A DNA stretch of 64,000 nucleotides. It comes from an uncultured virus (IMG/VR IMGVR_UViG_3300025675_000001). Lineage: Duplodnaviria; Heunggongvirae; Uroviricota; Caudoviricetes; Schitoviridae. The stretch lies in the IMG/VR virus record IMGVR_UViG_3300025675_000001. One strand, written 5' to 3'. Made by a program: the position numbers and the translations under genes. Shown here piece after piece: positions 4,224 to 64,000 of this stretch (position 1 is the stretch's first letter; the number at the start of each line of letters is the position of its first letter). Below the pieces are notes generated by a model. It made no database searches, was not told where the DNA came from, and worked only from the letters and a program-made list of their open reading frames with translations.

Positions 4224-6503
4224 ATGTCGAAGATGACCGAGATGACTGAACATGGCCGCACGGACGAGCTTCCGATCAATCCCGGTACGGCACCCAAACT
4301 GACCGAATGGGCGAATGAACCGACCGCTCTGGTTCTGATGGAAGATCTGGAGCTTGCCCGTCCGGCGCATGATCTGTTCGTCACGAAGATCCAGCGCTGG
4401 GTCGATCTGATGGAAGTGAAGAACGCCGCCCGGCCCAAGAAGGTCAAGGGGCGTTCCAATGTCCAGCCGAAGCTGATCCGGCGCCAGGCCGAATGGCGTT
4501 ATGCGCCATTGAGCGAACCGTTCAACTCGTCGAACAAGCTGTTCGATGTCCGGCCTGTCACCTTCGAGGATGTGGCCTCAGCCCGCCAGAACGAGACCCT
4601 GCTGAATTACCAGTTCCGATCGAAGATCAAGCGGGTCAGCTTCATCGATTCCTACGTGCGCACCTGTGTGGACGAAGGTACCTCCGTGGTGCGGGTCGGC
4701 TGGAGCCGGATCACCAAGGAAGTCGAGGAAGAAGTCCCGGTCTGGGAATATGTCGCTCCTGGTTCCGAGGAGGAGATGAAGCTGTTCGAGACAGCCCTCA
4801 AGGCCAAGGCCGAGAATCCCCGGGGTTTCATGGAGCAGGCCCCTCCCGAGATGCAGGCGGCGATCGAATTCTATGAGGAGAGCGGGCAGCCCAACATCGC
4901 CTACCAGATCGGCACGGAAATGATCACCGTTGACAAGGTGCTCGACAACCGGCCGGTGCTCGATGTCGTGAACCCGCACAATCTGTATTTCGATCCGTCC
5001 TGTGGTGATGATCTCGAGAAGGCCGGCTTTGTGATCGTCTCGTTCGAGACCTCCCAGGCCGAGCTGAAGAAGGAACCCAAGCGTTACAAGAACCTTCAGC
5101 ACGTCAACTGGGAAGGCGCCACAACGGTGATGGATCCATATCACCAGCCCAACTCCCGCGACACGAATTTCAATTACAAGGATGCGCTGCGCAAGCGCGT
5201 CGTCGCCTATGAATATTGGGGCCTCTACGACATTCACGGGACGGGCGAAATGGTCCCGATCGTGGCCACCTGGGTCGAGGGTGTGCTGGTCCGCATGGAA
5301 GAAAATCCCTTCCCCGACGGCAAGCCGCCTTTCGTCGTGGTTCCCTACATGCCGTTGAAGCGTCAGGTCATGGGCGAATCCGATGCCGAGCTGCTCGAGG
5401 ACAACCAGATGATCCTCGGTGCTGTCTCCCGGGGCATGATCGATCTTCTGGGTCGTTCGGCCAATGCCCAGCAGGGTTTCGCCAAGGGCATGCTCGACGT
5501 GGTCAACAAGCGTCGTTTCGAGGCCGGCCAGGATTACGAGTTCAATCCGAACATGCCGCCTCAGCAGGGGATCGTCGAGCACAAGTATCCCGAGATCCCC
5601 CGCTCCGCCATGGAAATGATCACCCTGCAGAACCAGGAAGCCGAAGCCCTCACAGGTGTGAAGGCGTTCCACGGTGGCATGACCGGCAATGCCTATGGCG
5701 ATGTCGCCACCGGAATCCGGGGCATGCTCGATGCGGCGTCCAAACGGGAAATGGCGATCCTGCGGCGTCTGGCTGCCGGTCTGGTTCTGGTCGGCAAGAA
5801 GATCATCGCGATGAATGCCGTCTTCCTCTCCGAGAAGGAGGTGGTCCGGGTCACCAACGAGGAATTCATCGAGATCCACCGGGACGATCTGCAGAGCGTT
5901 GCCGGCGAATTCGATCTCGAAGTCGATATCGCCACCGCCGAGGTGGACGAGAAGAAGTCGCAGGATCTGGGCTTCATGCTGCAGACGATGGGCAACACCA
6001 TGGATTTCGGGATCACCAAGCTGATCCTGCGAGACATTGCCCGGCTCAAGCGGATGCCTGAACTGGCCAAGTCGATCGAGGCCTATGAGCCTCAGCCGGA
6101 TCCACTCGCCGAGAAGATGAAAGAGCTCGAGCTCCAAAAGGTGATGATGGAGATCGAGAAGCTCAAGTCCGAGATCGAGCTGAACAAGGCCAAGGCCATG
6201 AAGGAAGGGGTCAACGCCGAGAAGGGTCTGCTCGACGCCGTCGAACAGGAGACCGGGACCAAGCACCTGCGCGAGATCGAGAAGCAGACGGCCCAGTCCA
6301 CGGGGAACCAGAACCTAGAGATCACCAAGGCCCTGCTCAAGAACCGCAAGCCGGATGAGACCCCGCCGAATATCGCTGCGGCCGTGGGTTACAACGCCCT
6401 CTCGAAACAGAACGCCAATCCGACAGAGCGTGATGTGCTGGATCCCCCGGAGAGCGTTTCGACCAACCCGGAAGCGCCGGCAGACGTTCCTTATCGACCA
6501 TAA
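4224..6503 (+). CDS. Portal protein (N4 gp59-like)
   Basis: 759 aa with KLTEWANEPT, QPKLIRRQAEWRY and GMIDLLGRSAN motifs typical of N4-like portals; synteny agrees. Confidence 0.92.
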   Translation: MSKMTEMTEHGRTDELPINPGTAPKLTEWANEPTALVLMEDLELARPAHDLFVTKIQRWVDLMEVKNAARPKKVKGRSNVQPKLIRRQAEWRYAPLSEPFNSSNKLFDVRPVTFEDVASARQNETLLNYQFRSKIKRVSFIDSYVRTCVDEGTSVVRVGWSRITKEVEEEVPVWEYVAPGSEEEMKLFETALKAKAENPRGFMEQAPPEMQAAIEFYEESGQPNIAYQIGTEMITVDKVLDNRPVLDVVNPHNLYFDPSCGDDLEKAGFVIVSFETSQAELKKEPKRYKNLQHVNWEGATTVMDPYHQPNSRDTNFNYKDALRKRVVAYEYWGLYDIHGTGEMVPIVATWVEGVLVRMEENPFPDGKPPFVVVPYMPLKRQVMGESDAELLEDNQMILGAVSRGMIDLLGRSANAQQGFAKGMLDVVNKRRFEAGQDYEFNPNMPPQQGIVEHKYPEIPRSAMEMITLQNQEAEALTGVKAFHGGMTGNAYGDVATGIRGMLDAASKREMAILRRLAAGLVLVGKKIIAMNAVFLSEKEVVRVTNEEFIEIHRDDLQSVAGEFDLEVDIATAEVDEKKSQDLGFMLQTMGNTMDFGITKLILRDIARLKRMPELAKSIEAYEPQPDPLAEKMKELELQKVMMEIEKLKSEIELNKAKAMKEGVNAEKGLLDAVEQETGTKHLREIEKQTAQSTGNQNLEITKALLKNRKPDETPPNIAAAVGYNALSKQNANPTERDVLDPPESVSTNPEAPADVPYRP

Positions 6504-6948: not shown

Positions 6949-8253
6949 ATGGGAGACGCTGTGAACCAGAACGGAAGCACCCCCAAGGACACACCCAAGG
7001 AATTCCTCGGGATGTCCGACGATGACTTCCTCAACCTCAACTCCCCAGATGATGCGGCAGAATCAACCAACGAGGATGGGACCAAGCAGGCCGAGCCCGA
7101 TCCTGCAGCGGCGGCGGAGGGCGGAACGCCCGGAGCCAGCCAAGCGGAAGAGGCGGGTGAAGAGCCTGCGAAGGATCCCGACGAGGCGGGCGATGCCGCC
7201 GCATCATCGGAACCAGCGTCGTCAGAACAAAACCCCTCTTCCGAAACCACTGAAGATCCCGAGCCGGGCAAAGAGGGCGATGCCAAGGCTGATGCGAAAG
7301 CAGATGCCGAGGGCGACAAGAAGGATGCGGATTCCAAGAAGGAAGACAAGACCGAATCCGAATCCGAACCCAAGCCGGTCAATTACGAGGAGTTCTACAA
7401 GCAGATCATGACCCCGTTCAAAGCGAACGGGCGCATGATCGAGCTGAAGTCTCCGGATGAGGCTGTGCGCCTGATGCAGATGGGTGCCGGCTACGGCCGC
7501 AAGATCCAGGATCTGCAGCCTCATCTGAAGACGCTTCGGATGCTGGAGAAGAACGATCTGCTCGACGAGGGCAAGCTCTCGTTCCTGATCGATATTAACC
7601 AGAAAAATCCCGAGGCGATTAAGAAGTTAATCAAGGATGCGGGTATTGACCCCCTTGATCTTAATAATGAAGATAATGTAGGGTACAAACCCACAAACCA
7701 CGCTGTCAGTGACAAGGAGATGGCGTTCCAGGAAGCCTTGACGGACATCCAAAGTCACGCCAACGGCCAGGAAACGCTCCGTTTGATCAACCAGACGTGG
7801 GATCCAGACAGCAAGGCTGCTCTCTGGGATCAACCCGAAATCATGCGCGTCATCCAGTCTCAGCGCGACAATGGCATCTATGACCAGATTGTCACCGAGA
7901 TGGACCGCCAGAAACTTCTGGGCACGATCCCGCAATCGACGCCATTTCTACAAGCCTACAAGATGGCGGGAGACCACCTGCAAGCCAATAACGGCTTCAG
8001 ACTTCCGCCAGGCCAGGAAGGTCAGATCCAGAACCAGCAGACGCATCCAACAGAGCAATCTGGTGCCCATGCGCCTCAGACCCAGGTGATCGCTACCCGT
8101 CCGGCAGCTCCGAAGGCCCAAGTAACGAATGGTGAAAAGGCAGCTGCGGCAACGCCGACCAAGTCGAGCCCAAGCCGTGGCAAAGCTCCGCTCGTCAACC
8201 CGCTCGAGATGGCGGATGACGATTTCATCAAGCAATTCAACGGCCGCCTCTGA
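6949..8253 (+). CDS. N4 gp57-like protein (often annotated tape measure; probable scaffold)
   Basis: Acidic low-complexity N-terminus, PFKANG and LMQMGA motifs, M-x-DDDF at both ends; directly upstream of the capsid gene. Confidence 0.8.
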   Translation: MGDAVNQNGSTPKDTPKEFLGMSDDDFLNLNSPDDAAESTNEDGTKQAEPDPAAAAEGGTPGASQAEEAGEEPAKDPDEAGDAAASSEPASSEQNPSSETTEDPEPGKEGDAKADAKADAEGDKKDADSKKEDKTESESEPKPVNYEEFYKQIMTPFKANGRMIELKSPDEAVRLMQMGAGYGRKIQDLQPHLKTLRMLEKNDLLDEGKLSFLIDINQKNPEAIKKLIKDAGIDPLDLNNEDNVGYKPTNHAVSDKEMAFQEALTDIQSHANGQETLRLINQTWDPDSKAALWDQPEIMRVIQSQRDNGIYDQIVTEMDRQKLLGTIPQSTPFLQAYKMAGDHLQANNGFRLPPGQEGQIQNQQTHPTEQSGAHAPQTQVIATRPAAPKAQVTNGEKAAAATPTKSSPSRGKAPLVNPLEMADDDFIKQFNGRL

Positions 8254-8291
8254 GGTCTCGAAAGACCGGGGCGTGCTAAGGGGACTCTGAG

Positions 8292-9521
8292 ATGTTGAAC
8301 TACAACGCTCCCACGAGTGCTGCAGCGGGTACGCCTTCGGATATCGAAGGTGCTGGCTCCTCCCAGATGAACACCTTCTTCTGGCTGAAGAAGGCCATCA
8401 TCGAATCCCGTAAAGAGCAGTATTTCATGCCGCTTGCCTCGGTCACCAACATGCCGAAGCACTATGGCAAGACCATCAAGGTCTACGAGTACGTCCCGCT
8501 CCTCGATGATCGGAACGTCAACGACATGGGTATCGATGCCAGCGGCGCCGTGATCGTCGATGGTAACCTGTATGGGTCGTCCAAGGATGTCGGCAACATC
8601 ACGTCGAAGCTCCCGGTCCTCACGGAGAATGGTGGCCGCGTCAACCGCGTTGGCTTCACCCGTCTCCAGCGTGAAGGCTCGATCACGAAATTCGGTTTCT
8701 TCACCGAGTTCACCCAGGAATCGATCGATTTCGATTCCGACGACCAGCTGATGGACCATCTGAGCCGTGAGCTCATGAATGGCGCCGTTCAGATCACGGA
8801 AGCTGTGCTGCAGAAGGATCTTCTGGCCAACTGCGGTGTCGTCCTCTATGCCGGCGCCGCCACCAGCGATGCCGACGTGACGGGTGAAGAGGCTGCCGGT
8901 CCCCCGGTGGTTCCGGCCTCGATCGTGTCCTACGCCAACCTGATGCGCCTCGATCAGATCCTGACCGACAACCGCACGCCGAAGCAGACCAAGGTGATCA
9001 CAGGCTCCCGCCTGATCGACACCAAGACCATCCCGTCGGCGCGTGTCATGTTCGTCGGATCTGAGCTGGTTCCCCTGCTCAAGGGCATGAAGGATCAGTT
9101 CAACGAGCGGGCCTTCATCTCGATCCAGCATTACGGCGATGCCGGGACCATCCTGAACGGCGAGATCGGCACCATTGATGCCTTCCGCATCGTGCAGGTT
9201 CCCGAAATGCTGCACTGGGCCGCCGCTGGCGCCGATGTCGGCACCAACCCGGGCTACCGTTCGTCCATGGATGGCGTGACCGAGAAGTACGACATCTTCC
9301 CGATGATGGTGCTGGGTGACGATTCGTGGACCACGATCGGTTTCCAGACCGATGGCAAGTCCGTGAAGTTCTCGGTGATGACCAAGATGCCGGGCAAGGA
9401 AACCGCGGATCGCAACGATCCCTACGGCGAGACCGGGTTCTCCTCGATCAAGTGGTACTACGGCCTCCTGGTCAAGCGTCCCGAGCGTATGGCCGTCATC
9501 AAGACGGTGGCCCCGGTCTGA
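8292..9521 (+). CDS. Major capsid protein (N4 gp56-like)
   Basis: 409 aa with [39 protein letters not shown] and [16 protein letters not shown]. Confidence 0.95.
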
Positions 9522-39924: not shown

Positions 39925-40287
39925 TCAGCGGATCAGGAATTCAGTACGGTCACGGCCCTTGATCCAGGCCGGTTCCTTGCCACGTCCCGACCAGACGGCG
40001 CCGGTTTGGGGATCGCGGTATTTGGGGACTGCCTTGACCCCTTTGCGTTTGATCTTCACCCCGCCCAGGGCTTCAACCAGATCCTCGATCGGAATATCGT
40101 ACTGGTTCACGACCTGGACGATCTGATCGATGACGCTTCGTTTGGTGGCTTCTTGTTTTTCCCGGATCTGTCGCTCGATTTCCTGCTGCTGTCGCTGCAG
40201 TTCGGCGACCGACAGATCCTGACCGTCCGTCTGGGAATGATCCGCAGGGCCTGCGAACAAGGCCTGCTTTTTCAGGGACTGGGTCAT
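39925..40287 (-). CDS. hns: H-NS family nucleoid-associated protein
   Basis: N-terminal coiled coil plus the canonical DNA-binding motif PKYRDPQTGAVWSGRGKEPAW. Confidence 0.9.
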   Translation of the reverse strand: MTQSLKKQALFAGPADHSQTDGQDLSVAELQRQQQEIERQIREKQEATKRSVIDQIVQVVNQYDIPIEDLVEALGGVKIKRKGVKAVPKYRDPQTGAVWSGRGKEPAWIKGRDRTEFLIR

Positions 40288-40439: not shown

Positions 40440-40754
40440 TCAGCCCCCCGGGCGAATGGTAGTTCGCGTGATGTACGCTTTGATCAACAACGACCGAAGA
40501 AAGCCCTTTACGGACTGCCCTGGTCCAAGCTGGGAGATCAACCAGGTCTGTTGGGCAGGAGACAAGGAATCATAGAGATCCTCCATGAAGGATCGGCGTG
40601 TATCAGCCGGCTCCACCCCTAAGACTTTCAAGCGATACGTGATCGTGGTGGGGTGGACATTCAGCCGTCTGGCGATGGAGCCAAGCGAGAGACCTACACT
40701 GTTGAGCGCAAGAATCGTCTGGTCATCAGCCTTTCTCTGATATTTTTCGACCAT
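40440..40754 (-). CDS. HTH DNA-binding protein
   Basis: LSLGSIARRLNVHPTTITYRL helix-turn-helix; AT-rich flanks. Confidence 0.75.
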   Translation of the reverse strand: MVEKYQRKADDQTILALNSVGLSLGSIARRLNVHPTTITYRLKVLGVEPADTRRSFMEDLYDSLSPAQQTWLISQLGPGQSVKGFLRSLLIKAYITRTTIRPGG

Positions 40755-52475: not shown

Positions 52476-52955
52476 TCAGATCTGATCCGATGATCGGAGC
52501 AGGAGATCGATGGTCTGGGAGAGCTTCTCGAGCAGTTCATGGGTGAAATCGACGACGGGACCGGTATGGATCTCACCGTTCAGTTTGAGCCGGTGGGGGC
52601 CGTCCATCTTCTTCACCCGGGTGTCGATCAGGGCCTTGATGTGCTCCAGATTGGCGCGCATGTAGAGGGCCCGATCGCCGGCATTGAATTCCGGATGACG
52701 GGTATCGAGAGGCTCATAGGTCTTCTCGAAGATGTCCGGTTTCACCGGATAGAACTCACCTTCGACACCGAGAACGATCCAGTCGCCCGCAGATGCCGTC
52801 ATGGTGCCTTGCAGTGTGGTGATGACGGCACCATAGGTGCTGATGATCTGGATCGTCCCGTCCATCACGGCATTCTGGAAGGCCATCGGCATGGGTTCGT
52901 CACTGGCCAGGCACATGGCTTCAACCACGACCGGACGCTTGCGGTAGTGACCCAT
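52476..52955 (-). CDS. PGDYG-like domain protein
   Basis: YRKRPVVVEA...TLQGTMTASAGDWIVLGVEGEFYPVKPDIFEKTYE. Confidence 0.7.
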   Translation of the reverse strand: MGHYRKRPVVVEAMCLASDEPMPMAFQNAVMDGTIQIISTYGAVITTLQGTMTASAGDWIVLGVEGEFYPVKPDIFEKTYEPLDTRHPEFNAGDRALYMRANLEHIKALIDTRVKKMDGPHRLKLNGEIHTGPVVDFTHELLEKLSQTIDLLLRSSDQI

Positions 52956-53332
52956 CAGCGTTTCCTTTTCTTCAGCTTGTTGATCTCCTCGCGCAGCAAG
53001 GTGACCAGCTTGGGGGTGGAGAAACCGGGTGACAGGTAATCCCCGGGATCCGGTCCATAGCGGACGCCGGCCGTGATGACCGGTCCGACCAGGATGTATC
53101 CGTCGAGACGGTGACCGTTCTGGCGCCAGATGCGCATGACCAGATCGTAGCCATAGGTCACCGGCACGGTTTCGTTCGTGTCGATATCCTTGCCGAAACC
53201 GAGCACGCACTTGGCGAGATCCTGAAGCGGGACATAGACGAGATGTTCCCGCCAGGGATTGTACTCATCCCACCAGGGATCCTGGTATGTGGTCTCGATG
53301 AAGTCGTTGGGATGGATGATGAGATCGTCCAT
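52955..53332 (-). CDS. Hypothetical protein
   Basis: Coupled ORF in the minus-strand operon; start uncertain. Confidence 0.55.
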   Translation of the reverse strand: MDDLIIHPNDFIETTYQDPWWDEYNPWREHLVYVPLQDLAKCVLGFGKDIDTNETVPVTYGYDLVMRIWRQNGHRLDGYILVGPVITAGVRYGPDPGDYLSPGFSTPKLVTLLREEINKLKKRKR

Positions 53333-53337
53333 GCTGA

Positions 53338-53634
53338 TCACCATTCGTAGAGTGGCAGATCGGTGACGGGTTCTTCGTCGCGATCGAACATGATCCATGC
53401 GCATATATGTGCCTGGCCATATTGCAGCGCGTAGCGAAGATCCTCGGGCATCTGTGTGTCCGAGGTTGATGATAAGAGGTGGTCAGGATCCGTGTAAACC
53501 ACAAACCCACATTCCCTCACGAAGCCGGAAACGATGGCAGGGCCATCTCCCCCGAGGGAATCGTGCAGGAAATCCGCGGTCTCGGCGGTGAGATGACCGG
53601 TCGAGAGATGGAGGATCTGATCGATGCGGGCCAT
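53338..53634 (-). CDS. DUF5983-like protein
   Basis: LSTGHLT...PEDL...WIMFDRD...LPLYEW pattern. Confidence 0.6.
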   Translation of the reverse strand: MARIDQILHLSTGHLTAETADFLHDSLGGDGPAIVSGFVRECGFVVYTDPDHLLSSTSDTQMPEDLRYALQYGQAHICAWIMFDRDEEPVTDLPLYEW

Positions 53635-53852
53635 CAGTGTTTCACCGCGTGTTCGGCCAGAAGCATTTCGTGGCGCTGGATGCGATCGAGCACGTTCCGG
53701 AAATGCGCCTGCAAGGGCAGAAGCACGTTGACGACCTTGTCGGGATCGTCCGGGCTGAGAACGTCGAGGGCATCGACGATCATCTGCAGCTGCTCCTCGG
53801 TCATCTGGAGTTGGAATTCCCAGGCGGTCTGGAGTTGGGGTGTGTCAGGCAT
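53634..53852 (-). CDS. Hypothetical protein
   Basis: 72 aa, coupled. Confidence 0.55.
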   Translation of the reverse strand: MPDTPQLQTAWEFQLQMTEEQLQMIVDALDVLSPDDPDKVVNVLLPLQAHFRNVLDRIQRHEMLLAEHAVKH

Positions 53853-54519
53853 GGGAGCTCTTCTCTTCTGGTTCCGCCAGGGTTTCCGTCAAGGTTTCCT
53901 GGACCATGGCCTTGTATTTCTGCTGGAGCTCGTCGATGAACAGAACCAGGCGTTCGAGCTCCTCGTTGCTCTGGGCCAGACCCAGATTGACGATCGGCAC
54001 GTTCATCGCTGTGGCCATGCGCAAAGCCTGACCAGTTCCGCCTGTGATTTCGCCGCCCGGTGTCCAGCACACGACGAAAGCCGAAAGCACCAGGTTTTCC
54101 CCATCGACAGCATGGGAGCCGACGATCTGGCGCACATTGCGCTGATGCATCAGCTTTGCCGACGGAGAGCACTTGTCCCAGGCCGGATGGAAGTGTGCGG
54201 CACAGGATTGCTCCTGGGGTGTGAACGGAATTCGGCCCGGATGCAGCTCCGAGCGCGAGTTGTTGAAGCCACGCCAGGGCAGATAAATCTGCTTGGCCGG
54301 CAGGCTGATGCGATCGGGTGCAAAGGCTTCCCGCACCATGTGATCGACCGCCTGTTCGAAAGCGGCATCGGCGCCATTGGCACCACCGGATCTGAGGATC
54401 CAGCCCTCCGCATAGAGGTAGCAGGCGACATGGTGCATGATCTTGAGGATCGGCTCAGGCGTGTTCCTGGCACCGATCCCGGCATAGACCAGGTAAGGTT
54501 TCTCCTGAACGTCGATCAT
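53845..54519 (-). CDS. SLOG/DprA-like Rossmann-fold protein
   Basis: YAGIGARNTP, LRSGGANGADAAFE, IYLPW and GGTGQA. Confidence 0.8.
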   Translation of the reverse strand: MIDVQEKPYLVYAGIGARNTPEPILKIMHHVACYLYAEGWILRSGGANGADAAFEQAVDHMVREAFAPDRISLPAKQIYLPWRGFNNSRSELHPGRIPFTPQEQSCAAHFHPAWDKCSPSAKLMHQRNVRQIVGSHAVDGENLVLSAFVVCWTPGGEITGGTGQALRMATAMNVPIVNLGLAQSNEELERLVLFIDELQQKYKAMVQETLTETLAEPEEKSSHA

Positions 54520-54947
54520 GCATAAAGATCCTCTATGGCGTGTGACCGAGCGTGGGGTTCGAGAACGATGTATTCCTGGCGCAGGACATTCCCGAAACCA
54601 CGCAGACGGGGTGGATTGCGATAGAGCCAGAGACTGACGGTATCGATGAGATCCTCGGTCAGACGGGCGATTTGTGCGCCATCCCACTGATCGCTGAATT
54701 CGCTGTCCAGGTTGATGTGCTGCTCGTTGTTCTCGAGGATCTCCTCGGCGATGTTCTCGGCCACCAGGGCGGCCATGAAATCGGCCTGAAGATAGGCGCG
54801 ATCGGCACAGGCCAACGTGATCGACCCCATGGTGGACTGGATGGCTCCAGCATGCAGGGCCACTTCACGGGTGGGATAGGGCCCGAGATAACCTTCCGGA
54901 TCACGGCCTTCTCCGACCCACCAGTAGAATTTTCCGTCGCTATACAT
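54516..54947 (-). CDS. Hypothetical protein (paralogue of next gene)
   Basis: DGKFYWWVGEGRDPEGYLGPYPTREVA. Confidence 0.65.
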   Translation of the reverse strand: MYSDGKFYWWVGEGRDPEGYLGPYPTREVALHAGAIQSTMGSITLACADRAYLQADFMAALVAENIAEEILENNEQHINLDSEFSDQWDGAQIARLTEDLIDTVSLWLYRNPPRLRGFGNVLRQEYIVLEPHARSHAIEDLYA

Positions 54948-55359
54948 GGGAACCTCCTTCACCTTCTGGTTCGCCGATGAAATATTTGACATTGCGCATG
55001 GTGCCGAAGGCCCAGGTTGTCCCTGGATGCGCGATGAGCCATGTGGTGATGGCCTGCTGAAAGGCGGTGTCGAGTGCCTTCAGGTCTTCATCGTTCCAGA
55101 TCTGGTCGAGATCCGGGTAATCGTCACTGAAGCATTCCTCGTTTGCCTCGATGAGGCTTTCGAGGATCTGCTCGACATAGAAATCCAGATTGATTTCAGG
55201 CCGCATCACGCTCTTATCGGATTCACAGATCGTGAAACCCGTGTCCTGGTAATCACTGCGGCCGGTCTGGATCGCGATGTCTCTGGTCTCGAAGGGGCCA
55301 TGATAGGCTTCAGGTTCAGCGCCCTGCCCGACCCACCATTTGAAGTTTCCGTCACCCAT
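54940..55359 (-). CDS. Hypothetical protein (paralogue of previous gene)
   Basis: DGNFKWWVGQGAEPEAYHGPFETRDIA; AAGGAG RBS. Confidence 0.65.
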   Translation of the reverse strand: MGDGNFKWWVGQGAEPEAYHGPFETRDIAIQTGRSDYQDTGFTICESDKSVMRPEINLDFYVEQILESLIEANEECFSDDYPDLDQIWNDEDLKALDTAFQQAITTWLIAHPGTTWAFGTMRNVKYFIGEPEGEGGSHV

Positions 55360-55374
55360 GTCGGGTCTCCTTGT

Positions 55375-55830
55375 TTACCAGCAGAGCGAAAGATGTTCGC
55401 CAGGCTGGATATCGATGTGCGACAGGCGGAAGGCGCGAAGCGCGGTCTTCTCAGGATCGAACGCCCGAAGGAACCAGCCTGGCTCGTAGCCGTAGCCGGG
55501 CTGCTGGATGTACTCGACGCCCAGCGGCATCACCCGTCGGGTGCGCTTTTCACCGCGGTGGTTGGTGTAGGTGAACTCGACGAAGATGCGCGAGGAAGGC
55601 TCGTGGGCCTCACGCGGACAGGGCGGCCCGAGAGCCAGAACCGCCCTGCCCTTCTCGGTAAGCTGGCCGCCGAATTTCTTGGTGATGAGGCCCGAGCCCT
55701 TGAGATATTCGAGCGCCACACCGATCGATGAACCCCACGGCGTGGGATCCTTCTGGCCATCCACCTCTTGCAGGATGCGGTATTCGAACGGTGTGAGCTT
55801 GGGCAGTTGATCCACAGGATGATGGTTCAT
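55375..55830 (-). CDS. Winged-helix + WYL domain protein
   Basis: LKGSGLI...LTEKG wing; FTYTNHRGEKRTRRVMP...WFLRAFDPEKTALRAFRLSHI. Confidence 0.75.
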   Translation of the reverse strand: MNHHPVDQLPKLTPFEYRILQEVDGQKDPTPWGSSIGVALEYLKGSGLITKKFGGQLTEKGRAVLALGPPCPREAHEPSSRIFVEFTYTNHRGEKRTRRVMPLGVEYIQQPGYGYEPGWFLRAFDPEKTALRAFRLSHIDIQPGEHLSLCW

Positions 55831-55841
55831 GACAGCCTCCG

Positions 55842-56450
55842 TCAGACTGGCAAGTCGAGCAGCTTGTTGAGCTGATGGATCGGAACAGCCGGCAGCTGGG
55901 TGGGCTTCTGGCCGGTCATATACGGCCGTGCAAAGGGTTCGATCTCCGGCCAGAGCTCGATCAGCTTGGTGAAGGAGTTGGTACTCTGGAGCATCCGCAT
56001 TGAGGTGCGTTCGGCTTCCCGGACCGTTTCCTCGAGTTTATTCCGCTCGTCTTCCAGTTCCTGGAAGCGGATGCTGAACAGGTGTGTGTCTTCGTAGCTC
56101 TTGACGCAGATGCCCTTGTGACGTTGCTGGATCCGATGACAGACGACTTCCTTCTTGTAATCGGCATAGCGTTGCAGGAAGCCGTGGAAAGTCCCGGTGA
56201 ACAGGATCCGCACATAACCCGTACCGGAGCTGCCGAAGCGGACATCGAGCCCGGTTTCTTCGGGCAGCCAACCTTTGGGCAGCTCTGCCATCTTGCGGCG
56301 GATCTCAGGGGTGTAGAGATCCAGATAGACCTGGTTGATCAGGTGGGCACGCTTCTCCGTCACCTCGTTGATGAGCTTGCGGAAGCGACGGATCAAAAGC
56401 GCTTTCTGGATGCGCTCACGGGTCTCGTTGATCAGGCGTGGAGTGCTCAT
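55842..56450 (-). CDS. Nmad5-like protein
   Basis: RLINETRERI N-terminus and KLIELWPE..LPAV..LNKLL C-terminus. Confidence 0.65.
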   Translation of the reverse strand: MSTPRLINETRERIQKALLIRRFRKLINEVTEKRAHLINQVYLDLYTPEIRRKMAELPKGWLPEETGLDVRFGSSGTGYVRILFTGTFHGFLQRYADYKKEVVCHRIQQRHKGICVKSYEDTHLFSIRFQELEDERNKLEETVREAERTSMRMLQSTNSFTKLIELWPEIEPFARPYMTGQKPTQLPAVPIHQLNKLLDLPV

Positions 56451-56554
56451 TGTGGTAGCTCCAAGGTGCGATTTGGAAGGGAGTTGGTTTCACGGGTGAT
56501 TCCCGTCGGTTTTCGGGAAAAAGTTGAAGTTGGTTTCCCGTCGCGTTGAAACTG

Positions 56555-56573
56555 AGTTGAATTATATTCAACT
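56555..56573. promoter_or_regulatory. Palindromic operator-like site
   Basis: AGTTGAAT-TAT-ATTCAACT in an AT-rich gap, with extra GTTGAA half-sites nearby. Confidence 0.5.
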
Positions 56574-56587
56574 TGGGTAGAAAACGC

Positions 56588-57070
56588 TCAACTATTTTCT
56601 TCAATATATTTTGAAAGAAATCCGTCGCGATAAGCCATCAGGATGCGACCCAGATGGTTATGGCCTCTGCCACGGCAGACACCCCAGAAGATGTCACCCC
56701 AGTGGTTGTCTTCGCGCAGCTCCCGAGGCGCGGTGGCCAGGAGCTTCTGCTTGAGATCGGGGTTCTGTTCGTACTTGGCCCGGGTGATCTCACCCATGAT
56801 GCGGATCTTGATCTGATCCCAGTCGGGACGCATCTCGAGCTTCTTTCCCAGACGCTTGGCAGCGCCGGGTGAGACACATTCGGAGATGTCTTTCCAGTCT
56901 TCCCAGTTCAGGCTCTTGGCTGCCTGGTAGGCATGTTCGGAGGTGGGAAAGACCAGCGTGCCCATGACGATCGGCGCCGGCCAGAAGTTGGAGAGGAAAC
57001 GAAACTCGCCCTGGAATCCGCGGATCGGCTGCGGGATGGGCTTCGACAAGCTGTCTGCGATATTGTCCAT
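56588..57070 (-). CDS. NADAR (YbiA-like) hydrolase
   Basis: FLSNFWP, FPTSEHAYQAAK, AKRLGK, RPDWD, KYEQNPDL, WGDIFWG and GHNHLGRILM. Confidence 0.9.
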   Translation of the reverse strand: MDNIADSLSKPIPQPIRGFQGEFRFLSNFWPAPIVMGTLVFPTSEHAYQAAKSLNWEDWKDISECVSPGAAKRLGKKLEMRPDWDQIKIRIMGEITRAKYEQNPDLKQKLLATAPRELREDNHWGDIFWGVCRGRGHNHLGRILMAYRDGFLSKYIEENS

Positions 57071-57089
57071 GATACTGTCGCTCCTGATG

Positions 57090-57121
57090 AAAAGGGCCAC
57101 TTCCCTTGTGAGGAAGTGGCC
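57090..57121 (-). terminator. Intrinsic terminator directly upstream of NADAR RBS
   Basis: On the minus strand: GGCCACTTCC-TCACAAG-GGAAGTGGCC-CTTTT. Confidence 0.75.
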
Positions 57122-59672: not shown

Positions 59673-59766
59673 GTTGAAGCTATTTTCAGGACAAGTTGAA
59701 AATAGGCTATCGGTCTATTAGGGGGTCTCCCCCGGTGCCATGGTTAGGTCACCGGGGTAGTTGGGT

Positions 59767-60105
59767 TCACGGGGTGGTCTCGGTAAACAAGGCCTCCAAC
59801 TCTGCGAGGTTTTCGTTAAACCTTTTCGTCAGGTTGGCGTTACCGTGTAGTTCTCGCTCCAGTGCATCCTCGATCTTGGCTTGGTTCTTGGCAGAATCGA
59901 GGAAGAGATTACGCTGCCAATGGTGATCCTCCACTTTGTGCTGGACGATCTGTTGGTGCTTGGCACGCTGAACATAGCGGTCAAGCATGTCGATACTGGA
60001 AGCACCAGTGTCAACGATTTGGGTGACGCTCTGGGCTACCGAATTCACGGTATTTAGGAGAGCGACAACGGTGGATGAGGTGGACTTGGCGATGGACGTA
60101 GACAT
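59767..60105 (-). CDS. N4 gp1-like early protein
   Basis: S/T/V-rich amphipathic N-terminus; GGAGG RBS; first gene after the vRNAP promoter. Confidence 0.65.
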   Translation of the reverse strand: MSTSIAKSTSSTVVALLNTVNSVAQSVTQIVDTGASSIDMLDRYVQRAKHQQIVQHKVEDHHWQRNLFLDSAKNQAKIEDALERELHGNANLTKRFNENLAELEALFTETTP

Positions 60106-60134
60106 GGTGATATCCTCCGGATGAAAGGGAATGA

Positions 60135-60154
60135 TCCGGAAGGGGCGAAGCCCC
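60135..60154 (-). promoter_or_regulatory. vRNAP hairpin promoter (N4 P1-type)
   Basis: Template (+) strand TCC-GGAA-GGGGC-GAA-GCCCC matches the N4 layout of CC, 4 nt, 5-bp stem and GAA triloop. Confidence 0.85.
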
Positions 60155-60260
60155 GAGTGTAGGTGTGGTGGGAAATGAGGTGGGGGGTAGTGTGAAAAGT
60201 GTGTGGTGTGTTCCCGGGGGGGGAGGGTTTTCAGAATGGAGTCCCACCGGTGTGACAAAC

Positions 60261-60349
60261 CTACTGCCAGACGTAATTATGAGGTTCGCCAAACCCTGCG
60301 ATCCTCTACTGCCAGACGTAGGTGTGGGATTCGCCAGACCCTGCGGATC
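60261..60349 (+). repeat. Two-copy 45-bp-period direct repeat
   Basis: CTACTGCCAGACGTA-N9-TTCGCCA(A/G)ACCCTGCG at 60261 and 60306. Confidence 0.85.
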
Positions 60350-60377
60350 GTCATCTCGTGGATCAGTTTCACCATTG

Positions 60378-60553
60378 GAACCAGAAAGAGAAATGACCCT
60401 TCTCTGACCCTGCGGAGCATCTCTTGGAACCAGAGGGAAAGACGCATCCTTTGGAACCAGAAAGAGAGGATATCCCCTCCTTCGATCCGCCGAGCGATGC
60501 TCTCTTTGAACCAGAGGAAAATCCATCTCCCCTACCCTTCTCTCTGAACCAGA
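60378..60553 (+). repeat. Five direct GAACCAGA repeats (iteron-like)
   Basis: Copies at 60378, 60427, 60454, 60508 and 60546. Confidence 0.75.
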
Positions 60554-60564
60554 AAGAAGAGCAT

Positions 60565-60857
60565 CTCTTATTTTCAAATAATGATATACAAAAAATATTA
60601 TGGGGATTTTTATATAGGGATTTTCCTTAATAATATATTGTATATCGTTTTATATATTATCAAACATAATCCCGAAGGATTTTCTTTAAAACCGATTATA
60701 TAGATAATACGTCTCTGATTTTCTTCATAATATATTATGAACTTAATACGCGAGATATTATCTTCATAATATATTATGGAGTTAATAGAATAGGCTTTTC
60801 GAGATAATGTTTTTAAGATAATGGTCTTTTATTATATTTATAATATTATCTTTATAA
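60565..60857. other. Extremely AT-rich region, candidate replication origin
   Basis: About 290 bp of strongly A/T-rich DNA in a GC-rich genome, next to iteron-like repeats and the rep-like gene; contains CATAATATATTATG twice. Confidence 0.6.
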
Positions 60858-60975
60858 GGGGGGTTCCCCCATGATCCCTGGGTGAAACCTATCAGGTTTT
60901 ACCAATAGCTTCGCCCGTCCGTCTTTTGTCCTTCTTTGAGAAGAAAAAAGGCAGAGGTAGGCCCGGTGAGGCAGG

Positions 60976-61761
60976 TTACAGCGTAGGGTCGGTAAAATGC
61001 TCTCTTTCCCTCGATCTGTAAAGCCCTCTCTTCACAGGAAGGGGGGGTCTTTTTTCTTCTGGCTCCCGAAAGGAAGGCCCCTTTGAAAGAGATGGGTATC
61101 CGTGGGGGTGGGTTTTTTGAACCCTATCAGGCTTCGAAACATCCTTGGATGTCCCCTTGGGACCACGCTTGAGCCAGGTCGTCCATTCCGCACAGACCAC
61201 GGTGATCCTGTTCGGCAGGTTCTTGGCACCCCGGACACGTCGTTCTTCCACCTTGAGCATGCCCATGGCACGGGCCTGACGGATGGCGTTCTGGGTGGTG
61301 GTACGAGACACCCCTGCCCGTGCAGCGATCTCGGCGAGGGTTCTCACACAAGCCCCCTTCCCTCTCCATTCATCCCCGATGATGCGCAGGACGGAGAGTT
61401 CGCCCGTGGTGAAATGAGCGGCGAGAGACGGAGGCACCGGACCGGTCGAAGCGAGCCGCCGACGGCGGGCGAGCGAAGACCGGGGGTCCGGTGCCGTCTG
61501 TTTGCGTCGGGGCGGGAAGATCGAAAACCGGGGACGGGAAATTTCTTCCCCCCTACGGGGGGAAGCGGATTTATTGCCAGCACTCCCAGCTTCAATCCCC
61601 TCCCCGCTTCGCAACAACTCGAGCTGCTCGGAGAATCGTTGTGCCTCGTTCTCGCTCAACATTCCCTGGGCCATCCCGCCCCAGATGGTGCGTGAGATCT
61701 CGTCGAACATCGTCCGGCCACGCGCCATCGACAGCGCGACCGTGATCTGGTCTGCCAGCAT
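60976..61761 (-). CDS. Winged-HTH protein, putative plasmid replication initiator
   Basis: RTLAEIAARAGVSRTTTQNAIRQARAMGMLKVEERR...NLPN; GAGGGA RBS; divergent from parA and adjacent to the AT-rich region. Confidence 0.6.
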   Translation of the reverse strand: MLADQITVALSMARGRTMFDEISRTIWGGMAQGMLSENEAQRFSEQLELLRSGEGIEAGSAGNKSASPRRGEEISRPRFSIFPPRRKQTAPDPRSSLARRRRLASTGPVPPSLAAHFTTGELSVLRIIGDEWRGKGACVRTLAEIAARAGVSRTTTQNAIRQARAMGMLKVEERRVRGAKNLPNRITVVCAEWTTWLKRGPKGTSKDVSKPDRVQKTHPHGYPSLSKGPSFREPEEKRPPLPVKRGLYRSREREHFTDPTL

Positions 61762-61822
61762 CTTTCATCCCTCAGCTTGGGATCCGGCAAACCTCCCCCG
61801 TTGCGAGAAATGACATTCCCAC

Positions 61823-61851
61823 TTGACGAAGGCTTCGAGCTTTGGGAATAT
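61823..61851 (+). promoter_or_regulatory. Sigma70-type promoter, antisense to rep leader
   Basis: TTGACG-N17-GAATAT, resembling alphaproteobacterial RpoD promoters. Confidence 0.55.
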
Positions 61852-61857
61852 CGATGT

Positions 61858-61928
61858 CGCCAAACGTCGATATTTCCTCGGCCCTGCCGAATCATGTGAC
61901 CCGCCCTCAGTGGCGGGTTTCGTGTTTC
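61858..61928 (+). ncRNA. Putative counter-transcribed RNA (ctRNA)
   Basis: Lies between the promoter above and the terminator ACCCGCC-CTCAGT-GGCGGGT-TTCGTGTTT; ends are estimates. Confidence 0.45.
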
Positions 61929-62126
61929 TGGTCTCTCTGGTTCCCTTCTGGTTCCAGTCGTCGAATCGTGGCGCAAATCAGATGCACCAACGCGGCATTG
62001 GAAACGGATCAGGGGGGTGCGTCAACCACAGCGTATTGGGTTGACTCATTTCGGGACATGCGCTGGGGGCTTACAATATCTTGTGAAATGTGTAAGGTTC
62101 CGGCTTCTGTACGGAGCAACCCCCAC

Positions 62127-62780
62127 ATGATCATTTCCTTCCTCAATCAGAAGGGTGGAGTGGGCAAGACAACCCTCTCCATCAATGTCGCAGGATACTT
62201 GGCCAATCAGGGTCACAAGGTTCTGCTGATCGATGCCGACAAGCAGGCATCTTCCTCGACCTGGGCTTCGCTCAGGGAGGAGCCGACATTTCAGGTCGTC
62301 AACCTGGCCAGGAGCAATATGGCCAAGGAAGCGATCGCCATGGCGGCGGATTACGACCACACCATCATCGATGGACCACCCCACGCAGAAGAGATTGCGC
62401 GCTCGTGCATCATCGCCTCGGATTACGTGGTGTTGCCGATCGAACCGTCCGGTCTCTCCACCTGGGCCACGGATCTGACCGTGCGGCAAGTCAAGGAAGC
62501 CCGCGATTTCAAGCCGTATCTGGAATGTGGGTTAGTGGTTTCCCGCAAAATAGGGAATACGGTTATCGGGCGGGACATCCGCAACATGGCCGCCAATGTC
62601 GGCATGCCGATCCTCCAGACCGAGATTGAGCAGCGGGTGGCCTTCGCCGAGAGCCTGACCATGGGGCAGACCATATTCGAATGGGCGGCGGAGAGCGCCG
62701 CCGCCCGCGAAATCGAGCAACTCACCAAAGAGATCATGAGCCATGTCGAAGAAGACGTTTTCACTGGTGCCGAAGCCTAA
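62127..62780 (+). CDS. parA: ParA (type Ib, ParF-like) partition ATPase
   Basis: NQKGGVGKTT deviant Walker A, LLIDAD, IIDGPP and QRVAFAES; 217 aa with no N-terminal HTH. Confidence 0.93.
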   Translation: MIISFLNQKGGVGKTTLSINVAGYLANQGHKVLLIDADKQASSSTWASLREEPTFQVVNLARSNMAKEAIAMAADYDHTIIDGPPHAEEIARSCIIASDYVVLPIEPSGLSTWATDLTVRQVKEARDFKPYLECGLVVSRKIGNTVIGRDIRNMAANVGMPILQTEIEQRVAFAESLTMGQTIFEWAAESAAAREIEQLTKEIMSHVEEDVFTGAEA

Positions 62781-63051
62781 CCAGAAGGTTCTCTCGGAGG
62801 AGCAGATCCGAGCCTATGAATCATCCGGTCCGGGCCATGACACCAACAAAGACAGCTACCGAACCCGTCCCGAGTTTGCCCACAAGACAGCTAGTGAGCC
62901 CATCAAGCGTTTGAGCCTCGATCTGCCACAATCCCTGCATCGCCGGTTCAAGATGGTATGCGTGGCAACCGATCGCAGAATGCTGGCAGAGATCCAGAAC
63001 TTCATCGAGCAACGCACGGACGAACTGGAGAAGGAGGCCGGGATCAAATGA
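62743..63051 (+). CDS. ParG-like ribbon-helix-helix centromere-binding protein
   Basis: Flexible N-terminus plus KRLSLDLPQSLHRRFKMVC; overlaps the parA 3' end. Confidence 0.8.
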   Translation: MSKKTFSLVPKPNQKVLSEEQIRAYESSGPGHDTNKDSYRTRPEFAHKTASEPIKRLSLDLPQSLHRRFKMVCVATDRRMLAEIQNFIEQRTDELEKEAGIK

Positions 63052-63055
63052 GAGA

Positions 63056-63111
63056 GGGAAGGGGCCGAGGAAACGCTGGGAGGAGCAGTCCCTTCCTCGG
63101 CCCCGATTCCC
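63056..63111. other. Inverted repeat after parG
   Basis: GGGAA-GGGGCCGAGGAA...TTCCTCGGCCCC-GA-TTCCC. Confidence 0.6.
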
Positions 63112-63255
63112 CGTCGCGGAAACCCACCAAACGCGCCAGGGAAACTGGAACAACCCTTTTGGGATTTTCTCGAAAATGCGTCTTGAATATGCTACGAATT
63201 AATAGCAGAAATGTTTTCTCGTGCAAACGCATTTATTTTCGAGAAAAGGGAACCC

Positions 63256-64000
63256 ATGACGACGCCCTCTCTTTTCAACACGCCGCCGCTGCAACAGCCT
63301 CGAGCGGAACCAGCCCCGAACCAGAATCCGGTCGCTGAAGAAAGTCTGCCGGCTCTGAGCCAGGAAGAGGTGAAGCGCGCCTTGCCGGCGCATCTGCGCT
63401 CGGCCGTGACCCAGGAACTGACCGACAAGCTCAACACGATCGCTGCCGATCCGGTCATTGCCCAGAACATCCGCGACAATTTCGTGAGCTATTCAGGGAT
63501 CCTGCGGGAAGGGAAATTCCGGGCCGACGAGTACATCAATGCCGTGGCCTATGTCAGCTACAAGCTGATGGGCTATACCAACCATGACGCTTATACCCGC
63601 GTCTTTCCCCAGCGTTACGCCAATCTGGTCGCCAAGGGCACATTGCCCAAGGACATCGCCTCCATCGTGTCAGCCTACCACCGCGGTCGTCTGGTCAACC
63701 TGATCATGGAACAGTCCCTGGTGCCGACCTGGGTCTTGAATCAGGATCTCTTCCAGAAGGCCCTGAACGTCCAGGCCGATCTGATGCTGAACGCCAACTC
63801 GGAGAAGGTGCGCACGGAAGCGGCCAACTCGTTGCTCACCCATCTGAAGAAGCCTGAGGCCAACAAGGGCTTCCAGATCAACATCAACAACGAGGATTCC
63901 TCCGGCATGAAGGAAATGCGGGAGATGATGGTTCAGCTTGCCGAACAGCAGCGGGGTCTGATTGCCGAGGGCAACATGAAGACGATCGATGTGGCAGGTT
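63256..64000 (+). CDS. N4 gp69-like protein (precedes terminase large subunit in N4), 3' truncated
   Basis: Hand-translated YINAVAYVSYKLMG, KDIASIVSAY, WVLNQDLFQKALNVQADLM and SEKVRTEAANSLLTHLKKPE; frame is open to the window end, so absent from the ORF track. Confidence 0.85.
   Translation, partial: MTTPSLFNTPPLQQPRAEPAPNQNPVAEESLPALSQEEVKRALPAHLRSAVTQELTDKLNTIAADPVIAQNIRDNFVSYSGILREGKFRADEYINAVAYVSYKLMGYTNHDAYTRVFPQRYANLVAKGTLPKDIASIVSAYHRGRLVNLIMEQSLVPTWVLNQDLFQKALNVQADLMLNANSEKVRTEAANSLLTHLKKPEANKGFQININNEDSSGMKEMREMMVQLAEQQRGLIAEGNMKTIDVAG

Follow-up and report, generated by a model that had tools for sequence, protein, structure and literature searches.

A plasmid-type partition pair and a winged-helix gene at the genome-end junction of an N4-like phage: a candidate phage-plasmid of the Schitoviridae

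Introduction

Why does an N4-like phage carry the partition genes of a plasmid at the place where the two ends of its genome meet? The question is raised by a 64,000-nucleotide stretch of DNA (hereafter the window, meaning this whole stretch; IMG/VR record IMGVR_UViG_3300025675_000001) from an uncultured virus of the family Schitoviridae, in which a cassette made up of a winged-helix gene and a divergently oriented gene pair, encoding a ParA ATPase and a ParG-like ribbon-helix-helix (RHH) protein, lies between the homologues of N4 gp1 and gp69. N4, with its unique injected RNA polymerase, is the textbook example of a strictly lytic phage; the early transcription of N4-type phages depends on this kind of polymerase, and proposals to use N4-like phages in therapy and biocontrol are widespread, on the assumption that they do not lysogenise. 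A first interpretation made from the letters of the window alone (the sequence-only reading) had proposed that the cassette is a plasmid replicon and partition unit, by which the phage is kept as an extrachromosomal prophage.

That reading had also relied on N4-like phages being classically lytic. According to the main text of Zheng et al. (mSystems, 2023; PMC10654107), they had indeed been thought strictly lytic, but the same study reported integrated N4-like proviruses and their integrases, so that the statement stands only as the former view. The words 'plasmid' and 'partition' are absent from the main text of that paper, and its supplementary tables may list ParA-type genes. No description of a plasmid-type N4-like phage was found in PMC8224337, in the main text of PMC10654107 or, at the level of titles and abstracts, elsewhere in the literature searched.

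The cassette lies where the two ends of a complete N4-like genome meet

The window covers most of an N4-like (Schitoviridae) unit of ~74.2 kb found in hypersaline-lake metagenomes. PHROG and Pfam scans of the long open reading frames (ORFs) revealed a layout that is the reverse of the N4 convention, in which the + strand carries the late genes (endolysin, portal at 4224, capsid at 8292 and the virion RNA polymerase, vRNAP) over the first 28 kb and the - strand, between 28.4 and 60.1 kb, the early and middle genes (SSB, primase, PolA, helicase, ligase, thymidylate synthase and the two RNAP2 subunits). The Schitoviridae core set is complete, comprising vRNAP, the two-subunit RNAP2, PolA, primase, helicase, SSB, portal, a gp56-type capsid protein, TerL and the gp69-like protein. 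The gp69-like gene matched 471 phage records, the closest being Huelvavirus ort11 of Sinorhizobium and OLIVR1 of Agrobacterium, and tblastn found homologues of the gp1-like gene in 14 N4-like records, the Achromobacter phage matches falling within an annotated terminal repeat_region. The cassette region (60112-63210) between these two genes is the meeting place of the two virion ends. The elements that the sequence-only reading had listed there, namely repeats, an AT-rich tract, a winged-helix gene and a divergent parA with parG, were all present, close to where it had placed them (Table 1). A blastn search with 59700-63400 against 50,697 phage records gave no match.

The window matched an inner stretch of a 74,396-nt JGI metagenome contig with 100% identity (window position w being contig position w+6385), and a 7,852-nt IMG/VR contig, 99.98% identical to the window, spanned the whole cassette and both flanking phage genes. 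Logan contigs of exactly 74,263 nt were present in four hypersaline lake metagenome runs, each differently rotated, and in one run the two contig ends overlapped by 30 nt inside the window stretch, which indicated that the genome assembles as a circle of ~74.2 kb. The same junction occurred in the JGI, IMG/VR and four-run Logan contigs, which ruled out an assembly chimera; these data may stem from one sampling campaign, and serve to exclude a chimera, not as independent evidence of biology. Of the closed circle from a bacterial isolate that the sequence-only reading had asked about, the circle was thus found, but as a metagenome assembly and not as the replicon of an isolate.

Taken together, the window, the JGI contig and a further IMG/VR contig allowed 70.1 kb of the ~74.2 kb unit (roughly 94%) to be read. 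The JGI contig extends the window so that the full gp69-like gene and TerL are visible, and the extra 6.1 kb past the window end hold the rest of the gp69-like gene, TerL, a gp67-like gene and tail or beta-helix tailspike genes. Neither an integrase nor a protelomerase was detected among the 57 window ORFs (searched against PHROGs, the unexplained ORFs also against Pfam) and in the 6.1 kb beyond the window, in line with the earlier statement that the window has no integrase.

The junctions of relatives were surveyed in the best 80 of 182 IMG/VR loci around gp69-like genes. A gp1-like gene was located 2-6 kb upstream of the gp69-like gene in 17 of these loci other than the phage's own, without the cassette, from which it follows that N4-like assemblies commonly read through the ends and that such a read-through is uninformative on lifestyle. 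The window does cross the genome-end junction as had been claimed, the ends meeting at 60.1-63.2 kb, but the notion that this is a sign of a plasmid state was rejected. The cassette occupies a hypervariable slot, which in ort11 contains tRNAs and small ORFs.

The ParA and ParG-like proteins form a plasmid-type partition pair

The ParA protein scored 239.8 bits against the NCBIfam equivalog ParA_partition (NF041546, cut-off 180), and its best PDB relatives over the full length were ParA of TP228 (5u1g, 1.4e-28) and ParF (4dzz, 1.7e-28). Its size falls within that of type Ib ATPases (about 200-220 aa), and it has no N-terminal helix-turn-helix (HTH). The ParG-like protein alone gave no match in Pfam or PDB; a profile of 41 homologues had TP228 ParG (1p94) as its best PDB match, with an E value of 7.7e-5 over the RHH region, and the Pfam family ParG (PF09274) was matched by 14 of the 41 members. 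Co-folding of the two proteins lent weak support to a contact, with a score of 0.32, compared with 0.00 for the best of three controls, and since similar complexes have been solved, this score may reflect likeness only. Of 157 solved complexes, 116 attained the mark used for co-folds, as did two of 215 mismatched pairs; just 18 of the 157 did so at 0.60 or under, and both passing mismatches scored that low. The co-fold runs agreed in at least 54% of contacts, with a partner pLDDT of at least 63. As judged from the sequence comparisons, the pair is a bona fide plasmid type Ib system.

The closest relatives of the window ParA are Rhodobacterales 'ParA family partition ATPases' (78-82% identical). 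Related parA-parG pairs with ParA proteins at this level of identity are carried by Paracoccus sp. SCSIO 75233 p7 and by the Pseudosulfitobacter plasmid unnamed6, and over 918 nt the parA-parG DNA shares ~70% identity with plasmids of 24 kb from Paracoccus and Pseudosulfitobacter, on which the pair comes after a repA gene (replication initiator protein A) and seven iterons. This proximity to Rhodobacterales plasmids suggests that the host is probably a member of the Rhodobacterales. The 24-kb plasmids use an RPA-type initiator with seven GGTGTGTGAAATGACGA iterons, whereas the phage has an unrelated winged-helix gene and a different repeat. The iterons of these repA-parA-parG plasmids are irregularly spaced (22-46 nt), and a second motif, CAAATGTGGGTTTGTG, occurs three times around their par operon and is likely their centromere.

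An IMG/VR search with the ParG-like alignment found the phage's own contig only. Proteins related to the winged-helix, ParA and ParG-like proteins at ~62-82% identity appear to share two other contigs of 12,573 and 10,969 nt, their co-location being judged solely by the equal sizes of the carrying contigs.

The winged-helix gene belongs to a plasmid family found beside ParA

The sequence-only reading had regarded the winged-helix protein as Rep-like and as a second replication route beside the phage's own PolA, primase and helicase. The function of the PHROG family to which it belongs, phrog_15967, is annotated as unknown, and weak matches to the 'replication initiation' families phrog_270 and phrog_391 (1.6e-5 and 1.9e-5) cover its HTH. 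The AlphaFold model (mean pLDDT 73) consists of an N-terminal three-helix bundle, a disordered linker, one winged helix at residues 93-199 and a disordered tail, and the single winged helix indicates that the protein is not a two-winged-helix initiator of the Rep_3 type. Pfam Rep_3 was not matched, and a direct PDB sequence search reached an E value of about 0.4 at best. A relationship to the HTH_36-type protein of Acinetobacter was discarded (hhalign probability 31%, over the HTH region only), and no counterpart of the winged-helix protein turned up in five genomes containing N4-like elements.

The winged-helix family has 504 homologues and occurs on 87 PLSDB plasmids, mostly small plasmids of Methylobacterium, Methylorubrum, Shinella and Methylocystis. 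On five of six plasmids examined, a ParA-type gene lies at a distance of 0.3-1.6 kb from the family gene; these five lack an annotated initiator, and one has an annotated RHH gene after the ParA-type gene. Across plasmids, IMG/VR and metagenomes, ParA adjoins the family gene in 15-16 of 23 distinct loci. The ParA proteins beside the family elsewhere are just 25-35% identical to the window ParA, so that the phage cassette is a mosaic of two plasmid lineages. Judged by these neighbourhoods, an initiator role of the Rep-like protein is plausible. An origin layout with the lowest GC beside the gene was not consistent across the five plasmids carrying the family.

Two plasmids with the winged-helix family and ParA, Methylorubrum populi pMPOP02 and M. 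radiotolerans pMRAD08 (21-23 kb), additionally have head genes of phage type (one a portal, a prohead protease and a capsid gene, the other those of terminase gpA and an S49 peptidase), and from this gene content they look like small or defective phage-plasmids.

The non-coding block combines phage backbone with a window-specific repeat array

Much of the non-coding DNA between the gp1-like gene and the cassette genes proved to be shared with relatives. A comparable GC-stem hairpin with a 3-4 nt loop was observed at the same position in all eight cassette-free relatives printed for comparison and in an integrated prophage of Mesorhizobium (described below); the window hairpin bears what we take to be a likeness to the hairpin-type early promoter of the N4 virion RNA polymerase. 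The 40-nt repeat pair contains CTGCCAGACGTA twice, with a core homologous to a backbone element of the relatives; these have a related CTAC..CAGAACGTAAyTAT element, and the CTAC..CAGACGTA element of the window belongs to the backbone. The shared order in relatives runs from the start of the gp1-like gene through the hairpin, a GGTGTG/CCCGGGGGGG run, CTAC..CAGAACGTAAyTAT and the AT-rich tract to the ATAGCTTCGCCCGTCCGTC...GGCAGAGGTAGG element, and the Mesorhizobium prophage has the same block of AT-rich, C/G-run and hairpin sequences.

The lowest GC content lies in the 200 nt at 60576-60775 (0.21), the next lowest value in the 64 kb being 0.39, and in ten of 11 cassette-free relatives examined the lowest-GC 200 nt (0.24-0.37) is positioned 80-220 nt upstream of the gp1-like gene. 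The AT-rich tract, present in cassette-free relatives and in the Mesorhizobium prophage, was therefore rejected as an imported unwinding element, and is possibly the phage's own origin or end region. The ATAGCTTCGCCCGTCCGTC...GGCAGAGGTAGG element, exact in four and variant in two of the eight printed relatives, contains a T-rich hairpin and, by its conservation, might be an end, an origin or a small RNA; Rfam (E up to 1) gave two chance miRNA-family matches and none for this element. The retention of the hairpin, the 40-nt repeats, the AT-rich tract and the element at 60905-60961 in relatives or the Mesorhizobium prophage assigns them to the phage backbone.

The repeat array, by contrast with this backbone, is specific to the window. 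The sequence TKGAACCAGARRGA occurs five times on the + strand at 60376-60557, with spacings of 49, 27, 54 and 38 nt, and no such array was seen in the eight printed relatives. In the whole window the repeat motif has 12 matches against 0.25 expected, a number reached in none of 100 shuffles, and the motif is common to the array and to the divergent promoter region between the Rep-like and parA genes. A sigma-70 and terminator scan was uninformative, as it returned six promoter-like sites (2.8 +/- 1.7 expected), five of them within the AT-rich tract. The window has an array near an AT-rich tract with inverted copies at the rep promoter, the arrangement looked for in an iteron replicon, but the tract is backbone shared with cassette-free relatives; the layout would fit either a centromere with an operator, or iterons beside the phage's own AT-rich region.

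The cassette described by the sequence-only reading is confirmed as an observation, and its interpretation is partly supported: the genes are intact and of plasmid lineages, but the AT-rich tract, the hairpin and part of the repeats are backbone. Judged by these sequence comparisons, the winged-helix gene is a plasmid-family partner of ParA, and the 'origin' is largely phage backbone.

An integrated relative, and N4-like elements of cultured bacteria with ParA next to a plasmid-type Rep

Scanning one genome per prokaryote species for portal homologues yielded 29 loci. The closest relative in cultured genomes is an element of Mesorhizobium yinganensis, with a portal 67%, a capsid 74% and a TerL 78% identical to those of the window phage, and this element is an integrated prophage within a 727-kb contig. 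Its genes follow a circularly permuted order, with the attachment point between those of the RNAP2 large subunit and an ATPase, and the gp69/gp1 junction is intact; a tyrosine integrase is located at one end and housekeeping genes lie on both sides (aroC and ribBA; fabI). The integration, the permutation and the intact junction together show a temperate clade whose genome circularises in vivo. No homologue of the window ParA or of the winged-helix gene was found in this prophage. In strain CN2-181 it extends from about 438,300 to 515,800 (~76 kb), is apparently intact with a vRNAP frame open over 3768 aa, and ends on the right with a 4-kb module of a Trans_reg_C regulator and the tyrosine integrase.

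A different picture emerged from the N4-like contigs or plasmids of whole-genome size (74-76 kb) in cultured strains, all four of which carry ParA beside a plasmid-type Rep. In contig6 of Larsenimonas suaedae DSM 22428 (74,886 nt), the two ends overlap by 123 nt, the vRNAP gene wraps them, and a Rep_3 initiator (PF01051, 9.8e-38, plus Rep3_C) adjoins a 210-aa ParA. Sequence16 of Vreelandella venusta NBRC 102221 (75,948 nt) has ParA and a divergent RepL-like gene, and the element of Acinetobacter sp. A47 (74,273 nt, 127-nt end overlap) has ParA and an HTH_36 gene. The fourth, the circular A. baumannii plasmid pRBH2-3 (75,126 nt), is the sole PLSDB record with an N4-like portal; its genes include ParA, a 102-aa gene, an HTH gene and a serine recombinase, and its ParA matches that of vB_IME_Ab2712, a deposited phage record, with 100% identity. 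On the N4-like contigs of Larsenimonas, Vreelandella and Acinetobacter sp. A47, the three that were searched, no tyrosine integrase was found, and the gene table of pRBH2-3 lists none.

Of the co-occurrence of vRNAP and ParA/ParG, which the sequence-only reading had recommended looking for, vRNAP with ParA was found in four elements of cultured strains. That integrases go with integrated copies, whereas ParA and Rep go with separate circles, is the main argument that the cassette serves extrachromosomal carriage. It is also on these grounds that the N4-like group probably includes plasmid-like prophages, and the culture-collection strains L. suaedae DSM 22428 and V. venusta NBRC 102221 appear, from their assemblies, to carry such elements.

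The scan also met N4-like portals embedded in large contigs of cultured strains of Xenophilus, Alteromonas and Moraxella (two strains, in one of them on a contig of 2.27 Mb), and in Moraxella sp. ZJ142 the vRNAP region is present twice, on two contigs.

Possible roles of the cassette

We consider it fairly probable, from the gene content of the cassette and its analogues, that it would maintain the circularised genome as a low-copy episome. A plasmid maintenance module would have been captured in the variable slot where the virion ends meet. The linear genome would circularise across its terminal repeat after injection, for which the permuted integrated prophage of the Mesorhizobium relative is a precedent within the clade, and as long as the lytic cascade stays off, the circle would be retained in dividing cells. 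The GAACCAGA sites, five in the array and two inverted ones in the promoter region, would be bound by the ParG-like or the winged-helix protein, ParA would segregate the genome copies, and the winged-helix protein would either start theta replication beside the AT-rich region of the phage or regulate the module. The extrachromosomal prophage of the sequence-only reading thus gains from the circular assembly, the lack of an integrase in the sequence read and the 74-76 kb analogues in cultured bacteria, but the record itself is a metagenome circle. For its second replication route there is a plasmid-family gene beside ParA, but the encoded protein has just one winged helix and shows no significant similarity to known initiators.

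Several observations weigh against a low-copy episome. The phage is represented by metagenome contigs only, with no host cell linked to them, and a collapsed terminal repeat also yields a circular assembly; ~4.1 kb of the unit, with open beta-helix tailspike-type ORFs at both borders, lies outside the sequence read. The cassette was present in one of the 80 IMG/VR loci, that of the phage's own contig. No recognisable repressor or lysis-lysogeny switch was detected in the 57 window ORFs (PHROGs and Pfam) and the 6.1 kb beyond. GAACCAGA occurs sporadically in the junctions of cassette-free relatives (ten matches in 11 loci), once or twice in some, and GAACCAG/GAACCAGA is not enriched in related Rhodobacterales or Methylobacterium plasmids. 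As the AT-rich tract and much of the non-coding block are backbone, a complete imported origin is not present. The Rep-like protein, with its one winged helix, may be a regulator: Foldseek, a check that the sequence-only reading had proposed, returned only generic winged-helix regulators of the MarR/CodY type (E above 1e-3), and pAU20rrn of Aureimonas sp. AU20 has a homologue of the family plus another annotated initiator. (This 9.4-kb plasmid carries an rRNA operon, and its winged-helix homologue lies at 7617-8363 and is 32% identical.) Finally, the Pantoea phage G19, deposited as an isolated phage, has ParA and an Arc-like (RHH) gene, which shows that such genes are compatible with plaque-forming phages.

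One alternative is partition only: ParA and ParG would keep a carrier-state or pseudolysogenic genome in both daughter cells, the winged-helix protein would be a transcription regulator (an autoregulator or immunity factor), and replication would start from the phage's own origin in the AT-rich block. The single winged helix with its MarR/CodY-type matches, the backbone nature of the AT-rich tract, the second initiator of pAU20rrn and the inverted repeat copies in the promoter region, which fit an operator, all agree with it. We nevertheless think it rather unlikely, since five small plasmids have the winged-helix family beside ParA and no other annotated initiator, the protein has its weak PHROG 'replication initiation' matches and its Atlas look-alikes are HTH_36 clusters, and in the other N4-like episomes a true Rep occupies this place.

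The main rival is that of a strictly lytic phage with the cassette as an infection accessory, which could position or separate the phage DNA as it replicates, displace resident plasmids that share its partition type (incompatibility) or disturb host segregation. Its absence from 79 of the 80 related loci, the lack of a repressor or integrase in the sequence read, the ParA and RHH genes of G19 and the phage's own polymerase, primase and helicase are what would be expected of such an accessory, but it leaves unexplained why a different plasmid initiator (Rep_3, RepL-like or HTH_36) stands beside ParA in each cultured-strain circle, and why a sister lineage has an integrated prophage. We judge this explanation improbable.

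That the cassette is functionless passenger DNA from a recent illegitimate recombination with a plasmid has very little to recommend it. The rarity of the cassette among relatives does suggest that it was probably acquired recently, and it sits in a hypervariable slot (tRNAs and small ORFs in ort11), but its three ORFs are intact and parA and parG overlap, as they do on plasmids. Moreover, the four runs, the JGI contig and the IMG/VR contig agree in its sequence, it comes with a repeat array and matching copies at the promoters, and the protein trio is apparently conserved at 62-82% identity on other contigs. An integrative prophage with its integrase in the remaining 4.1 kb, or a junction chimera, is scarcely credible even though integrase-bearing N4-like prophages exist (Mesorhizobium; main text of PMC10654107), given that tailspike-type ORFs border the remaining stretch on both sides, that the site of the Mesorhizobium integrase (the RNAP2-ATPase gap) here spans 690 nt with one 117-aa ORF, and that the junction was reproduced in separate JGI, IMG/VR and Logan assemblies.

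Low-copy maintenance of the circularised genome would also bear on how such phages stay silent. As N4-type early genes are read solely by the virion-borne polymerase, a genome copy that outlives the first burst would be silent except for a plasmid module driven by host promoters, and for such a silent copy a classical repressor might be unnecessary for persistence as a low-copy plasmid. Along these lines we tentatively suggest, at less than even confidence, that the Schitoviridae hold several independent phage-plasmid lineages, each with a different captured rep-par module (Rep_3, RepL-like, HTH_36 or the winged-helix family of the window), with possible persistence without a classical repressor.

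Comparison with known systems and significance

The window resembles the ParF/ParG-parH and ParA/ParB systems of TP228 in its small ParA without an N-terminal DNA-binding domain, the overlapping gene of an RHH adaptor and the upstream repeats. It differs in that the pair sits in a phage backbone of the virulent type and that its binding sites are candidates, and its repeat motif and spacing presumably differ from those of parH.

Like P1, N15, SSU5, phiHAP-1 and VP882, the window phage has plasmid rep/par genes in a phage genome, and the ParA proteins of the linear plasmid prophages phiHAP-1 and VP882 were among the phage matches to the window ParA (~35% identity). Those phages are myo- or siphoviruses with known repressors, whereas no protelomerase, Cre/lox or immunity genes of the P1/N15 type were seen in the window phage. 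A complete phage gene set and genes of plasmid partition and plasmid winged-helix families are found on one molecule, one of the two features looked for in a phage-plasmid; the other, an extrachromosomal replicon in a host, was seen only for the analogues in cultured strains, and the window phage is known from metagenome contigs alone.

The elements pRBH2-3/vB_IME_Ab2712, Larsenimonas, Vreelandella and A47 likewise encode vRNAP and a small ParA, which is followed by a further small gene and adjoined by one of initiator type. These separate 74-76 kb replicons or contigs differ from the window phage in host class, Rep family (HTH_36, Rep_3, RepL-like) and insertion site, and their portals are 43-50% identical. 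The integrated N4-like proviruses described in the main text of Zheng et al. (mSystems, 2023; PMC10654107) belong to the same family and are temperate, and the Mesorhizobium prophage, of the same clade, circularises at the same junction; they use an integrase and chromosomal insertion, whereas the window phage has ParA, ParG and the winged-helix gene instead.

If plasmid-type carriage is true, it would be a second, independent temperate route besides integration, and persistence without a classical repressor would in turn be a new way to lysogenise. Safety screening of N4-like phages by an integrase search alone would then miss plasmid-type elements. The finding also bears on the exchange of maintenance modules between phages and plasmids, and on how a phage that needs a virion enzyme for early transcription can stay silent.

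Coordinates and other genes of the window

The features discussed above are collected in Table 1.

Table 1. Positions of the cassette, its surroundings and the virion RNA polymerase in the 64,000-nt window.
Feature	Position	Strand	Remarks
Virion RNA polymerase (vRNAP), 3648 aa	17007..27953	+	phrog_2206, E 0, 2295 bits; defines the genome as N4-like
gp1-like first early gene ('left end' side)	59767..60105	-	phrog_5020, E 1.6e-17; ATG and RBS present
GC-stem hairpin, GAA loop, directly upstream of the gp1-like gene	60142..60154		Conserved backbone
Two copies of a 40-nt unit (CTACTGCCAGACGTA...)	60261..60345	+	Repeat family, 85% identity
Window-specific ~200-nt block with five direct repeats TKGAACCAGARRGA	60360..60567	+	Candidate centromere or iteron array
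AT-rich tract	60567..60860		GC 0.21 over 200 nt; conserved backbone of the N4-like clade
Conserved non-coding element ATAGCTTCGCCCGTCCGTC ... GGCAGAGGTAGG	60905..60961		Closes the backbone block; cassette genes begin right behind
Winged-helix 'Rep-like' protein, 261 aa	60976..61761	-	phrog_15967, E 1.7e-63; candidate initiator or regulator
Two inverted GAACCAGA copies in the divergent rep-like/parA control region	61932..61956	-	Candidate operator
Type Ib ParA partition ATPase, 217 aa	62127..62780	+	Deviant Walker A KGGVGKT
ParG-like ribbon-helix-helix protein, 102 aa	62743..63051	+	Overlaps parA by 38 nt
gp69-like/small terminase ('right end' side)	63211..64000, continues beyond the window	+	phrog_2109, E 2.3e-91

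A perfect inverted repeat of 13 nt (TTTTCTCGAAAAT / ATTTTCGAGAAAA), its arms separated by 57 nt, was noticed at 63165-63177 and 63235-63247, in the stretch that links parG to the conserved part of the gp69-like gene. In the early region, the - strand from 52476 to 57100 encodes a NADAR protein (PF08719), Nmad5 (nucleotide modification associated), a WYL-domain protein, a DprA-like protein and DUF5983, for which anti-defence or DNA-modification functions are possible by their domains. Farther inside the window, a protein with an H-NS C-terminal DNA-binding domain (PF00816, E 1.7e-12) is encoded beside a small HTH protein (39925-40287 and 40440-40754, both on the - strand). These two proteins, which by their domains are possible silencing factors, are conserved in the Mesorhizobium prophage at 56-62% identity.

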